Source of the DNA: a virus
Taxonomy: Duplodnaviria; Heunggongvirae; Uroviricota; Caudoviricetes
Direction: 5' to 3' (one strand)
Virus record (IMG/VR): IMGVR_UViG_2534682338_000009
Span: 1 to 12,048 of that record
Length of the DNA: 12,048 bases
The first letter of the stretch is position 1, and each line of letters opens with the position of its first letter. Below, piece after piece: positions 6,315-10,809 of this stretch. The position numbers were made by a program, and so were the translations under genes. The notes under the pieces are model-generated. The model ran no database searches. It saw nothing but the letters and a program-made list of their open reading frames with translations, and was not told the origin of the DNA.

Positions 6315-8135
6315 ATGAAATTAGTTCGTATTGACATACAAAACTTTAGAGGTATTTCTTCTGCCTCTATCAATCTCGAAAACTTTACAACCTTAATAGG
6401 TTCTAATAACATTGGTAAATCAACCATACTTAAAGCGATAAAAATACTTGTTGATACAACTAATCCAACGTCTGAAGATTGGCCATTTCGTACACCCAGT
6501 AATGAAGAAATGATCATCACAGGAGTTTTTTCCGACATACAAGATTGCGAGCAAAATAAACCAGCCATTTCTAATCTAATTCATGAAGGGAAACTCAGTA
6601 TTCGAGTTAGAGCTAAATGGGATCATGACAATGGATGTATAGGTCTTCCTTGTTATGAAGCATTTTATTGCAAAGAAGATATAGAGGACTATACAACGTC
6701 TATAACCGCCGCAAGAAATATTCCGTGGTTGCTAAACATCATAAATGAACTTAATTGTAATAATGCTAAAAGCTACAAGGAAATGCAAAGTGACATTATT
6801 GGATTAATAAAACAAAGGCATCCGGAAAAAGTTTCATCTAATTTATGCTGGACTTCTGAAGGCATTAACTTTAAGAATAGCTTACAGCAAGCTCTACCGC
6901 ATGTATTATATATACCAGCATGTTTTAAAATTGAGGACGATCTTAAATCACAGAAAGGCACACCTTTTGGATTTTTATTTTCTAATAGAGTTTATCCAGT
7001 ACTACAGTCTGACCCATCTTTCACCCAATATACTGCCTCGCTTGACCTATTGCACAAGAAGATGAAAGGTGAAGTTGATGGTGAAGTTATTGAAGGATTG
7101 CATGAATTAATGGAGTCTATTACTGAATCTCTTAATCAGGTGATGGACTTAAAATCTAAGGTAAAATTAAGCCTAACTGAAATTGACATTAATTCTGCTT
7201 TAATGAAGGCAGCAACATTAGTCATTGAAGATAAACTTGAAACTCAACTTGAATATCAGGGTAGTGGAGTTCAACGAGCTTTGGCTTATGCTTTACTTGA
7301 ATCTAATGCTTTATTCGAAGTCAATACGTCTCAAAGATCAACAATTATTCTTTATGAAGAACCTGAGCTATATATACATCCACATTTGATGCGATTACTG
7401 AGAGATAAACTTAGAGAAAAATCAACAAATGCCTCTTGCCAAGTTATCGTTAGTACACATTCACCATTCTTAATTGATATTGCAGAAAACCCATCGTCTC
7501 TAAAATTAATTAAGGATACTAATGACGGCACTAGAACGGTTCATGAAATAGATGATACAATTTTCCATGTAGATGAACATTATAATGAAAGGGAAATGTT
7601 ACGAGCGGCATTAGATTTTCATCCTACCGTCTGTGAAGCATTTTTCGCTAAAAGAGTAGTCGTAGTTGAGGGAGATACAGAAGTAGCAATACTTAGGTTT
7701 GCTTCAGAACTATGCGACAAATTCGGTATCTCAAAAAATTTAGTAAAAGATACAACTATTGTTTCTGCTGGAGGGAAATGGACAATCCCAGCCATAGTGA
7801 GAATTCTTTCAAAACTCAATATTCCATTTAAAGTTGTTCATGATACTGATAGAAAAGGAATGTCCGAAGAAGAATTACGTAACATATCACCAATAAACGC
7901 ATTTCGTGCAAATGCGAAGATTGAAAATATAGTTGGTGCCGAAAGAGTATTCCGAGTAGATGATACATTTGAACATTTACTATGGGATCCAATGATTGAT
8001 GGAAATGCACCTTCAGATGGAGGAAAACCTTTCAATGCCTGGAAAAGAATACGTGATTACTTAGAAGGTAGTGTTATATTACAACCAAACTGTGAAACTA
8101 AACTCAGGAATGTAATTAGATTCATTTATGAGTAG
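6315..8135 (+). CDS. OLD-family (overcoming lysogenization defect) ATP-dependent nuclease: N-terminal ABC-type ATPase plus C-terminal TOPRIM domain; standalone (Class 1-like)
   Basis: 606 aa. Walker [10 protein letters not shown] (nt ~6399-6425) after an N-terminal [14 protein letters not shown] segment. Signature-like [13 protein letters not shown], Walker B/D-loop [13 protein letters not shown] (nt ~7341-7385), H-loop VSTHSPF (~7452-7469). C-terminal TOPRIM motifs VVVVEGDTE (~7656-7685) and VVHDTDRKG (~7833-7859). No helicase or second nuclease gene adjacent. Confidence 0.85.
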
Positions 8136-8152
8136 TTATTAAATTCATATAT

Positions 8153-8170
8153 GCCAGTACTAGTACTGGC
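8153..8170 (+). terminator. Perfect 18-bp palindrome GCCAGTACTAGTACTGGC 18 bp after the OLD stop; possible intrinsic terminator
   Basis: Perfect palindrome read directly from the sequence, followed by AT-rich sequence but no clean T-run, so terminator function is uncertain. Confidence 0.35.
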
Positions 8171-8263
8171 ACATAATATAATAAATATAATTTGATAATT
8201 ATACATTATATAGAGAAAACTCATTTATGACATCTACTTTATTACATCCATTATTTATATATA

Positions 8264-8326
8264 CTCATTACTCATTACTCATTACTCATTACTCATTACT
8301 CATTACTCATTACTCATTACTCATTA
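8264..8326. repeat. Perfect tandem heptanucleotide repeat (CTCATTA)x9
   Basis: Nine uninterrupted 7-bp units counted directly from the sequence, in an ~80% AT spacer between the convergent OLD gene and the secreted-protein gene. Confidence 0.95.
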
Positions 8327-8360
8327 ATAAATATTTCTCACTATTTTAAATGAATAATTC

Positions 8361-8395
8361 CTATTAATATTACAAGTTAGTTTTAATATTAATAG
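8361..8395. repeat. 12-bp inverted repeat CTATTAATATTA / TAATATTAATAG with 11-bp spacer
   Basis: Arms at 8361-8372 and 8384-8395 are exact reverse complements. AT-rich; function unknown. Confidence 0.6.
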
Positions 8396-8537
8396 TAAAA
8401 TTTAGCCTCTTCTTATTATTTTATGATTTGTACTAAATCATTTAGTAGCTAAATATATAGATTACTATTCATAGTACTGTCTCGTTGATAGTACGTATTC
8501 CCCGAATATTTAAAGCCTGCCATGATTGTCTTTTTCA

Positions 8538-8915: not shown

Positions 8916-9234
8916 TGTGACTTATTCCAGTTAGTTACTGTGAGGAATTAATTGTTGAGACTCTTTTTGAAACTGCAATACTTCATCAATGGATTTTTTA
9001 TCGGTACGCATTAAGAATCATATAGTACACCAACTACTATGGCAACTATGAAAATTATAAATTATCCCGATATAGTTGGTTGGTTTCGAGAACTCAAATT
9101 CAGTACCGCAATTATTTGGACAATCAATTACCCTAGATACGTTTTTATGTGTGCCTTATGCTCAATATAGCTATGAATCTTTATAAGGCGATCTACAGCA
9201 ATGAGACAACCACCTGTAAAGGTGCTTCTTTGTT

Positions 9235-9498
9235 TTATGGTTTTGGCTTGCGTAATTTCTTTGTTTTCGCTGCTTTAGTGATTAAATCAGTATATTTCTT
9301 GATACTCTTCTGTAGTTTCTCGTCTTCTGATAGTTCCTCTACAACGTCCTGTACGCCCCTTAGAATGCGTTCTACTTCTTCGGCGTCGCGTTGTACGTCT
9401 TCATGTACTCCATACTCTACGTAGCGTCTTAGGGCTTCAATATTGGGGATACTATAGCTTGCTACAACTCCATCAGTATGATGAATGTGTAGGTCCAA
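9235..9498 (-). CDS. Hypothetical small charged protein (87 aa, putative TTG start, basic C-terminal tail)
   Basis: ORF has no in-frame ATG; the only start is TTG at 9496-9498, preceded by GGTGG. The protein is helical and charged with a KKLRKPKP tail, and its codon usage resembles the head genes (GTA, CTA, GAA, CGC rich). The overlapping plus-strand ORF (9149-9424) translates to Ser/Thr/Cys-rich low-complexity sequence typical of the antisense of acidic coding DNA. Confidence 0.35.
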   Translation of the reverse strand: MDLHIHHTDGVVASYSIPNIEALRRYVEYGVHEDVQRDAEEVERILRGVQDVVEELSEDEKLQKSIKKYTDLITKAAKTKKLRKPKP

Positions 9499-10006
9499 GC
9501 CACCGTTGATATATGCAGTTGAAAACTTTTGGCATATAATTACCTATATAGAAAGCAAAAAAGAAATAAGTTATTAAAGTCCACACTGACCATTTTGAAA
9601 AAAGTGACTTTGATTTTTCTTGGAAAGTTTTTTTAAGACAACTATTTAGTAAGAATATTGATACAAATAAAATCAAGTTTATGATAAAGAATTTCCACTC
9701 CATCAATATATCACCCAATATTAGCATAGGAGCCATCATTCCAGTACTAATTACAGTAATATTATGAAATAAAGTATTCGAACTTCTATATGCATTTCTT
9801 AACAATATAAAAACTGCAATTATTATAATTGCATTCTGTACAAGGGTTAATACTAACGAATTGAAATCAATCCATATTAAACTTATGGGATATCCATAAT
9901 AAACAGAGTTACCGAGTTTATAAAATACATATGTCGCATATGACATAAATGTGATCAATGTTATTATTGATATGTTACTTTCTAGTTTGTATGGGCTATT
10001 TCGCAT
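9473..10006 (-). CDS. Hypothetical polytopic inner-membrane protein (about 5 predicted TM helices)
   Basis: 177-aa ORF with ATG at 10004-10006. Hydrophobic segments ISIITLITFMSYATYVF, LVLTLVQNAIIIIAVFILL, VISTGMMAPMLILGDILM, FFIINLILFVSIFLL and WSVWTLITYFFFAFYIG. Very AT-rich gene. No family recognised. Confidence 0.6.
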   Translation of the reverse strand: MRNSPYKLESNISIITLITFMSYATYVFYKLGNSVYYGYPISLIWIDFNSLVLTLVQNAIIIIAVFILLRNAYRSSNTLFHNITVISTGMMAPMLILGDILMEWKFFIINLILFVSIFLLNSCLKKTFQEKSKSLFSKWSVWTLITYFFFAFYIGNYMPKVFNCIYQRWLGPTHSSY

Positions 10007-10092
10007 CTAATATATCTCTAAACAATTAACTCTAGATTATTTTAATTCCATACTAATACACTATATATCAACATATGATACTCAAACAATTT

Positions 10093-10118
10093 GTTCCCCT
10101 TAACCAACAAAGGGGAAC
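10093..10118 (-). terminator. Stable hairpin (9-bp GC-rich stem GTTCCCCTT/AAGGGGAAC, 8-nt loop) between lipoprotein and membrane-protein genes
   Basis: Stem pairing verified base by base in the sequence. Only weak U-tracts follow on either strand, so it could be a terminator/attenuator or an mRNA-stabilising structure. Confidence 0.3.
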
Positions 10119-10131
10119 GAATAATTTACAC

Positions 10132-10809
10132 TTAAAATTCTTTTCTTGAATCGAATCCACTTACAATTGTGTAGTCTATAAGAGAATTATTTGCCTCGTT
10201 AATTCGAATTTTAGCACCTTTATAAGCGACAACTTTTGTTCCTTCAGAAAGGTCAAAAGTAAAATCTGTTGTATATGCAGATCTCGCCATATTATTAGAG
10301 AATTCACGATATGTGAATTTTAATGTGTTGCCTGACTTTCCATTATACTCTATCGTCTTTACAAATGAATCACTAACCATACATAATCCATTTGGTACAT
10401 ACTGTATTGAAATTTCACTCGAATTGTATGTTGTACCATTAGGCGGTGATATTGTATTTTTTGCTTTATCATATGTTACATAGTTTACTGAGTTAACAAC
10501 TACTCCATATAAGTTCTTAAGCCCAACTGAATTCTTATCAATCGGATTTGCATAAACATTGTTTCCGGTATGGCAGTATGTCCCTTCTTTAATTTCTGAT
10601 AGTGATCCTGACGCGTTACCAAGTTTAAGCAATTCAGTTTTATATCCAGTAGCTGACCTTATAATGGGATCCCCCATGTATGCTTTGTTAGTTGTACCAA
10701 CCATTGGTTCTACATATTCTTGAGTTGTGACTTTTGGAGCAACACTACCCGGAGCACAGCCAGATAATAATGTGGCACCTAAAACAATCAGAGGTATATT
10801 ATTTTTCAT
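10132..10809 (-). CDS. Hypothetical lipoprotein (signal peptidase II lipobox LLSGC; Ala at +2 suggests outer-membrane sorting)
   Basis: 225-aa ORF with ATG at 10807-10809 and AAGGAA 9 nt upstream. N-terminus MKNNIPLIVLGATLLSGCAPGS has a canonical lipobox with Cys18. Mature part is Asn/Tyr/Thr-rich and likely beta-rich. No family recognised. Confidence 0.7.
   Translation of the reverse strand: MKNNIPLIVLGATLLSGCAPGSVAPKVTTQEYVEPMVGTTNKAYMGDPIIRSATGYKTELLKLGNASGSLSEIKEGTYCHTGNNVYANPIDKNSVGLKNLYGVVVNSVNYVTYDKAKNTISPPNGTTYNSSEISIQYVPNGLCMVSDSFVKTIEYNGKSGNTLKFTYREFSNNMARSAYTTDFTFDLSEGTKVVAYKGAKIRINEANNSLIDYTIVSGFDSRKEF

Follow-up and report, generated by a model that had tools for sequence, protein, structure and literature searches.

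A probable variable accessory region beside a cos-like motif in an Escherichia coli prophage

The DNA analysed here, called the window throughout, is a stretch of 12,048 nucleotides (positions 1 to 12,048 of the IMG/VR record IMGVR_UViG_2534682338_000009) from a prophage of Escherichia coli, in which an OLD-family nuclease gene and a pair of genes for a lipoprotein and a membrane protein lie in AT-rich DNA next to the head and packaging genes. It is identical to positions 3687-15734 of locus L007 (GL871841.1, assembly GCA_000190855.1), whose chromosomal flank (yceK-mdoH) matches E. coli K-12 at 100% identity; this flank ruled out Escherichia fergusonii, the host first suspected. The prophage is temperate, siphovirus-like, of the serine-recombinase type and about 30 kb long, adjoining msyB and ending, on the far side, with the serine recombinase. 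Complete E. coli genomes contain related prophages of about 32.5 kb, inserted in yegD, with the gene order lysis, tail, head, small terminase (terS), variable region, recombinase. No close relative was found among sequenced phages: the top identity for the large terminase (terL) was 38.7%, in Escherichia phage DCP80, and a megablast comparison of the window with sequenced phages gave a fragment of an insertion sequence (IS) as its sole match.

Genes and features of the AT-rich stretch

The head and packaging module (190-5864, minus strand), which was recognized by Pfam and PHROG matches and serves as our compositional reference, is followed by the first of two cassettes. Cassette 1 (5987-8275, plus strand) comprises the OLD gene, its upstream region and a downstream palindrome. 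The OLD gene (6315-8135, plus strand) encodes a predicted ATP-dependent nuclease of 606 residues, with matches in PADLOC, Pfam and the PDB. Its top PADLOC model was Old (1.4e-74), not GajA or AriA; residues 1-387 matched an N-terminal ABC/AAA ATPase (Pfam AAA_15, 9.4e-38), and residues 443-512 matched the OLD-like_TOPRIM domain (PF20469, 2.6e-14). The closest solved structure was the OLD protein of Thermus scotoductus (PDB 6P74, 1.3e-25). The Walker A motif GSNNIGKST aligned to the P-loops of 6P74 and GajA, and the segments VVVEGDTE and VVHDTD aligned to VEGYGD and VVHDED of 6P74, which hold the Toprim glutamate and DxD residues; identity to P2 Old is 24%. No same-strand partner open reading frame (ORF) of the kinds sought (UvrD/GajB helicase, retron reverse transcriptase, AriB) accompanies the gene, which has the divergent terS upstream and the palindrome and the convergent orf125 downstream. 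These features predict a stand-alone OLD nuclease of the class 1 type, which may protect the lysogen by cleaving DNA in an ATP-dependent manner when other phages infect. The gene has a dN/dS of 0.09 relative to its counterpart in L003, and both OLD and orf225 (described below) are under purifying selection.

The palindrome following the OLD stop codon (8148-8175) is an inverted repeat of 14+14 nt, 93% complementary with a perfect core, and is probably a terminator common to the two convergent genes; a terminator scan did not call it, and no T-run follows it. The spacer between terS and OLD is 450 bp long, and a consensus promoter scan detected no clear promoter there, promoter-like sites being fewer than expected by chance and showing no enrichment. 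At the right edge of the cassette is a microsatellite, (TACTCAT)x9 (8262-8324; TRF score 130, 100% matches), whose copy number varies (2, 11, 4, 3 and 3) among prophages with at least 99.6% identity elsewhere, so that it looks like a slipped-strand hypervariable locus. Situated between OLD and the convergent orf125, the repeat spans a 40-aa ORF (8227-8349, plus strand), the frame of which would shift with copy number.

Between the cassettes, several pieces of DNA have counterparts in the backbone of relatives. A 73-bp relic of a methyltransferase-like gene (8456-8528) is 82% identical to the interiors of coding sequences (CDSs) in L002 (17351-17424, a class I S-adenosylmethionine-dependent methyltransferase) and L003 (13097-13170). 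Next to it, orf125 (8538-8915, minus strand) encodes a predicted small secreted protein with a signal peptide and one N-terminal hydrophobic segment; syntenic homologues with 38-44% amino-acid identity are found in L001, L002, L024 and L025, all of which lack OLD, and orf125 is on this basis a backbone gene and not cargo. A pseudogene relic (9061-9230, minus strand) corresponds to the 3' part of a 126-aa backbone gene, matching L001 14663-14841 and L002 13642-13820 within annotated CDSs at 73% nucleotide identity; no intact minus-strand ORF is present at 9061-9230. Finally, orf87 (9235-9498, minus strand, TTG start) is truncated at its 5' end and retains the C-terminal ~70 residues of a backbone gene of 171-172 aa, with 58-71% amino-acid identity to residues ~102-172 of L001 17073-17591 and L002 16616-17131; its nucleotide homology stops at 9517. 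The homologues of orf125 and orf87 keep the same order in L001 and L002. The GC-richer genes between the cassettes are true backbone remnants.

Cassette 2 (9509-11196, minus strand) contains the membrane-protein and lipoprotein genes together with their upstream region, and is 94% identical in nucleotide sequence to L017 apart from a 137-bp gap at 10993-11129. L017 is a yegD prophage whose terL and portal proteins are only 43% and 45% identical to those of the window. The cassette is also present in L038 and L039, and the pair of genes stays together in phages. The first gene, orf177 (9473-10006, minus strand), encodes a predicted polytopic membrane protein with at least three strong hydrophobic segments and is truncated at its 3' end: residues 1-166 align to a family of 232-aa proteins (the length of the L017 product), the final 11 residues derive from the junction, and the C-terminal soluble domain of the family has been lost. 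The 3' end of orf177 and the 5' end of orf87 were both lost at a single junction, 9509-9517. The second gene, orf225 (10132-10809, minus strand), encodes a predicted outer-membrane lipoprotein with a lipobox and an invariant Cys18; it is a member of phrog_1353, and an all-beta fold was predicted for it with confidence. The pair may act at the envelope, for instance in superinfection exclusion. In addition, IS-truncated fragments of orf225 and part of the membrane gene occur in a chromosomal island near yecA in four E. coli genomes (L004 9001-10371; L005 9001-9951), where their neighbours are type I restriction genes, DprA/RecQ-like genes, a DUF262 gene and a fragment of a phosphorothioate-dependent restriction system.

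The right limit of cassette 2 is marked by a GC-rich block of 64 bp (11243-11306), in which homology to the backbone resumes (95% identity to L001 18034-18097). The surrounding DNA (11130-11400), likewise GC-rich, contains GGGCGGCGACTC and GTGGCGACTC, without an Rfam match (none was obtained anywhere in the window at E <= 1), and is probably regulatory or origin-like in character; a 14-nt direct repeat present 2.5 times (11184-11218) and an imperfect 38-nt palindrome (11312-11389) were also noted here. Beyond it lies orf158 (11572-12048, minus strand; 39.0% GC), an early-region gene outside the AT-rich segment that resembles the head genes in composition, with homologues of 90% identity in L026 and 65% in L038.

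Base composition and codon usage

The original prediction had described the interval 6315-10809 as a compositional island, markedly AT-richer than a head module of about 40% GC, and these values were borne out. Individual head genes range from 38.3 to 41.2% GC, and the head genes together (166-5864) have 39.3%, compared with 32.9% for 6315-10809 (2x2 chi-square = 44, p = 3e-11). The low values are found in OLD (34.4%; 23% at third codon positions, GC3), orf177 (27.9%) and orf225 (34.1%), as well as in the intergenic DNA, which as predicted is AT-rich (23-29%) except at 8916-9234 (34%); the 87-aa ORF, said to resemble the head genes, has 41.3%. The limits of the island were less well predicted. 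Unsupervised binary likelihood-ratio segmentation, evaluated with 1000 permutations, divided the window into 1-5849 (39.4% GC), 5850-10979 (32.4%) and 10980-12048 (40.5%), so that the compositional unit is 5850-10979 and not 6315-10809. None of the 1000 permutations matched the score of either boundary, 5849/5850 or 10979/10980 (p<0.001), and finer sub-segmentation within the island was not significant. The AT-rich segment is not closed on its right side, because the source contig beyond the window again has 33.8% GC up to the recombinase (33.9% for the whole non-structural arm, which this segment opens); the 40% patch at 10980-12048 is a local exception.

The deviation was also evident at synonymous sites. 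When the amino-acid sequence of each gene was held fixed and codons were drawn from the synonymous usage of the head module, OLD (z = -5.9), orf177 (z = -3.8) and orf225 (z = -3.3) proved 3.3-4.4 GC points too AT-rich; orf125 (z = +1.3), orf158 (z = +1.8) and orf87 (z within +1.3 to +1.8) were slightly GC-richer than expected, and head genes tested by leaving each out in turn all gave |z| < 0.9. Pooled synonymous codon usage differed between head and cargo genes (chi2 = 188, df 41, p = 1e-20), compared with chi2 = 63 (df 40) for two halves of the head module. The richness of the head genes in GTA and TAC codons, another feature of the original prediction, was confirmed: GTA accounts for 66% of Val codons in the head genes and 37% in the cargo, and TAC usage is 39% and 19%, respectively. 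Tetranucleotide profiles gave correlations with the head module of 0.19 for the OLD cassette and -0.03 for 9509-10979, against 0.48-0.51 (minimum 0.34) for length-matched pieces of the head module itself and 0.47-0.59 for the equivalent region of relatives lacking OLD.

Thus the composition analyses that had been proposed as a check (GC, codon usage and tetranucleotides) yielded a significant difference between the modules. The second check, comparison of gene order with relatives without the cargo, singled out the same genes: those that are foreign by composition, OLD, orf177 and orf225, are exactly those that are foreign by synteny. Only orf125, which the original prediction had placed with the envelope cargo, had to be reassigned, being a backbone gene on both counts.

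Origin of the mosaic

The two cassettes have different distributions. Cassette 1 was found at 92.5% identity in seven E. coli genomes; its context was examined in one of the seven, strain C2 (L003), where it lies at the corresponding position of a yegD prophage with head genes that have almost no nucleotide similarity to those of the window. It is absent from the yegD prophages L001 and L002, the closest relatives of the head module (88% nucleotide identity from 190 to 6006/6039), which lack orf177 and orf225 as well. Among 5426 complete E. coli genomes, OLD was present in seven, the lipoprotein/membrane pair in four, and both in none; the 19 IMG/VR contigs of the family included one with OLD and two with cassette 2. 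In much more distant phages of Mangrovibacter and Erwinia, terS/terL are adjoined by OLD homologues with 85% and 63% amino-acid identity. These distributions call for a minimum of two separate events.

The left boundary of the variable region coincides with a cos-like motif, TTCGCGGCGAAAACTCC-N20-GGGAGTACCTAT (5991-6040), situated 127-176 bp upstream of the terS start and common to every version of the terS-OLD spacer in our alignment. The motif is kept in L001, L002, L003, L012, L014 and L017, despite terS and terL sequences that can be only 35-50% identical to those of the window; the Mangrovibacter and Erwinia phages also have it upstream of terS, and in L017 it is found in the same region. 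Its core, GCGGCGA, is also that of cosN of phage lambda, and lambda cosN lies at a similar distance from terS; the motif is therefore a putative cos site. The GGGCGGCGACTC block (11130-11196) was also considered as cos and was dropped in favour of 5991-6040, given the lambda-like distance of the latter from terS and its conservation in distant relatives. All left-hand breakpoints, of three kinds, fall at the motif: homology to relatives lacking OLD stops at 6006/6039, homology to L003 starts at 5987, and identity to L008-L010 changes from 83-92% to 100% at about 5987. The cos-like motif would then be a recombination anchor and form the left edge of the variable region.

The slot next to terS is diverse across the family. 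A survey of 24 family members, covering 4.5 kb upstream of terS in each, yielded 156 ORFs that fall into 64 clusters, in arrangements that are mostly unique; OLD is present in five of the 24, always divergent from terS. Other occupants include a PLD-like nuclease and a candidate defence protein (PDC-S31/DUF2971, 6.6e-30), and the rest are mostly without a function match. One recurrent gene, c0 (121-143 aa; 18 family loci, for instance L001 11998-12381 and L017 10441-10821), has no Pfam or PHROG match and is not annotated by NCBI in L001 and L002; it lies just past the cos-like motif in L001, L002 and L017, shows 51-99% identity in 16 of the 18 loci, including loci with a terL identity of only ~43%, and is absent from every OLD-bearing locus. 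Searches of Pfam, PHROG, NCBIfam and PADLOC gave no function for c0, orf125, orf87, orf177, orf158 or a 186-aa gene of L017. A tentative suggestion is that the family, an uncharacterized group of AT-rich prophages of Enterobacterales, might possess a cos-proximal defence hotspot of its own, analogous to that of P2/P4 and independently evolved, and that its unannotated occupants (orf225 with its 232-aa partner, and c0) might be undescribed exclusion or defence modules.

We put at roughly 0.8 the probability that the AT-rich stretch is a variable accessory region next to the cos-like site, made up of two exchanged cassettes (OLD and lipoprotein/membrane) and remnants of the backbone. On this model, the region would begin at the cos-like site just upstream of terS, with OLD transcribed away from it, and the cassettes would have arrived separately through recombination with phages of the same family. 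The conserved cos-like sequence would have been the anchor for the exchange on the left, and microhomology alone would have sufficed for that at 9509-9517, where the membrane gene would have lost its 3' end. Such exchanges would replace genes and leave truncations and relics, rather than add to an intact backbone. The low GC would be the signature of an AT-rich pool of phage accessory and defence genes, added to a family-wide deficit of 3-4 GC points in non-structural genes. A scan of genome contigs with OLD returned only four loci. OLD homologues from four other genera have 33.8-35.5% GC whatever their flanks, and the values stay at 34-35.5% across all the host and phage backgrounds considered, including P2; because of this, low GC is a stable property of the OLD gene pool and not the fading signature of a donor. 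Of the stepwise acquisition originally proposed, the patchwork and the separateness of at least two acquisitions with different distributions stand, while the idea of cargo added onto an intact backbone gives way to cassette replacement.

Several considerations weigh against this interpretation or limit it. Part of the contrast requires no acquisition: structural and non-structural genes differ by 2.8-3.9 GC points in relatives without these cassettes and by 5.4 in the prophage of the window, and because a gap in the same direction exists in those relatives, about half of the contrast is generic and family-wide. The cos assignment depends on position, conservation and the GCGGCGA core, and in L017 the 186-aa gene lies between the motif and terS, an unusual arrangement for cos. 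The truncated orf177 may be inactive, structural neighbours of orf225 included no informative match, and phage exclusion by OLD or by the envelope pair is a predicted role. Further, the near-100% identity between the window and the corresponding arm of L008-L010 shows that the latest exchange involved a whole module, not a single cassette.

This last point underlies the strongest competing explanation, to which we give a substantial but less than even chance: that the head module is the newcomer, the AT-rich arm having been resident when the structural genes were replaced at the cos-like site. Between the window and L008-L010, identity is ~100% along the arm (OLD to recombinase, ~9.2 kb), 83-91% in the heads and 61-97% in head plus tail, with the switch at about 5987; the mdoH flank of the L008 host is 84.6% identical to E. 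coli; and the arm bears the integrase that fixes the msyB site. Whole modules, then, swap at the cos-like site too. The original prediction had taken the head module for the older backbone, a claim that an arm at ~100% and a head at 83-91% do not bear out. However, a newcomer head leaves unexplained the truncation of both orf177 and orf87 and the relics of other genes, as well as the sharing of OLD alone with L003-type phages and of cassette 2 alone with L017-type phages, and it is compatible with cassette exchange as an extra, later event. The ~100% identical arm, serine recombinase included, is common to an E. coli strain and to the host with the 84.6% flank, and points to a very recent spread of the arm between species.

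An improbable alternative is that nothing was acquired and that AT-richness follows functional category, the comparison being between structural genes with high expression on one side and non-structural, membrane and weakly expressed genes and promoter-rich intergenic DNA on the other. The non-structural deficit of 2.8-3.9 points, seen in every family member with or without the cassettes, is what this explanation would lead one to expect, as are the spacers of 23-29% GC, the GC content of only 26% at first codon positions (GC1) in orf177, with its hydrophobic, Ile/Phe/Asn/Tyr-rich composition, and the tail fibre gene of L001, whose synonymous-site z is -5.8. Control genes in relatives deviate about as strongly in either direction (a 157-aa gene, z = -3.7; a 227-aa gene, z = +3.6 to +4.1), and these phages are in general patchy in composition. 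The contrast does owe something to amino-acid composition and to AT-rich intergenic DNA, and composition alone is insufficient proof of acquisition. Nevertheless, the deviation of the cargo persists at synonymous sites, the equivalent region of OLD-less relatives correlates with the head far better (r = 0.47-0.59) than the two cassettes do here (0.19 and -0.03), and the cassettes are present or absent, and near-identical, across divergent phages, so that synteny largely refutes this explanation. Least probable of all, and very unlikely, is that a transposable element or an integrase-driven island delivered the cassettes from a bacterial chromosome of low GC: the IS1414 copy in the window would fit it, as would the fragments of orf225 and orf177 that four E. 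coli genomes have between ISs in the chromosomal defence island near yecA, but neither cassette has a transposase, terminal inverted repeats or target duplications (no transposase or integrase was found within 5850-10979, and flanking direct or inverted repeats were only chance-level pairs, such as a 16-nt inverted pair at 6050/8429 that is one of ten of its kind), the yecA-island ISs truncate the segment rather than delimit it, and intact copies reside in phages of the same family, with OLD homologues beside terS in distant members.

Known systems and further features of the prophage

Anti-phage hotspots adjacent to cos are known in P2 and P4, with old and tin at the P2 locus (Rousset et al. 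2022, PMC9122126), and P2 old/tin beside cos is a direct precedent for the cassette 1 arrangement. In both cases a stand-alone OLD gene lies beside a cos site (putative in the window) and is transcribed outward, with the packaging genes on the opposite side; P2 old adjoins cosR and has its promoter facing away from it. The GC contents are also alike, 34.4% for OLD here and 34.8% for P2 old (tin, 32.9%; fun(Z), 32.8%; P2 reference genome), each below that of the head genes, and the slot in the present family is likewise highly variable and holds other defence-type genes. Unlike P2, the prophage has a lambda-type gpA terminase and portal, a siphovirus-like tail and a serine recombinase in place of the P2 tyrosine integrase; its head contrast is about 5 GC points rather than about 20 (P2 head genes, 53-61%), the window contains no tin homologue, and its cos site is a putative one.

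Morons usually differ in GC from their neighbours (PMC3594210), and OLD resembles those of the lambdoid phages HK97 and HK022, as conceived by Juhala and Hendrix (PMC3594210), in being absent from close relatives, in differing in GC, in lying between conserved genes and in having its own upstream region and downstream hairpin. It departs from them in that the cassettes replace c0 and its neighbours with no net addition of DNA: c0 and neighbours are missing from OLD-bearing loci, and orf87 and orf177 are truncated. Like the class 1 proteins P2 Old and 6P74, the OLD protein of the window combines an ATPase Walker A motif and a C-terminal Toprim domain in a single gene, its identity to characterized members being low. 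Genomes of the lambda type have a GC-rich structural arm and an AT-rich non-structural arm. The window is similar in that its composition step falls at the putative cos genome end and at the structural/non-structural boundary, and dissimilar in that both arms are far below the GC of the host (34-40% versus ~51-53% in the flanks). A wider comparison (the window and L001/L016) placed the whole prophage family at 34-40% GC and host flanks at 51-57%, an anomaly that far exceeds the contrast first flagged.

AT-rich morons and cos-proximal hotspots are already established, and the window is an instance of this known pattern that leaves current understanding unchanged. Its value is as a clear and quantified example of base composition, codon usage and synteny converging on the same exchanged prophage cargo; it extends the rule of defence genes next to cos from P2/P4 to an unrelated and unstudied phage family, in which the slot beside terS can be mined for new anti-phage genes.

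The left end of the window is formed by the end of an IS1414 element (IS256 family; 1-196), which matches the ends of IS1414 copies in many E. coli genomes at 97-99% identity; homology to intact relatives begins at 190, after this end. The IS1414 copy (L007 2381-3875) breaks the protease-capsid fusion gene (166-1602, minus strand, truncated) after about residue 471 of 618. Because IS1414 interrupts the capsid gene, the prophage is defective and unable to make capsids; an inactivated prophage with an intact OLD gene under purifying selection between lineages fits retention of a phage-borne defence by the host. Among the relatives, L010 and L011 have split terminase genes.

The remaining head genes, all on the minus strand, encode the portal (1502-2998), a head-tail joining protein (2998-3519), the gpA-type large terminase (3500-5422) and the small terminase (5295-5864). 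The linker that joins the protease and capsid portions of the fusion protein has an acidic stretch rich in Glu and Val (EEVQ...), encoded at 865-966 by tandem repeats of 21/42 nt. An overlap of 128 nt (5295-5422) exists between the ORFs of terS and terL, the latter with a TTG start, and either terL starts further downstream or the overlap is genuine; RefSeq annotation of L001 and L002 also has terS/terL overlaps, of ~120 and ~77 nt.

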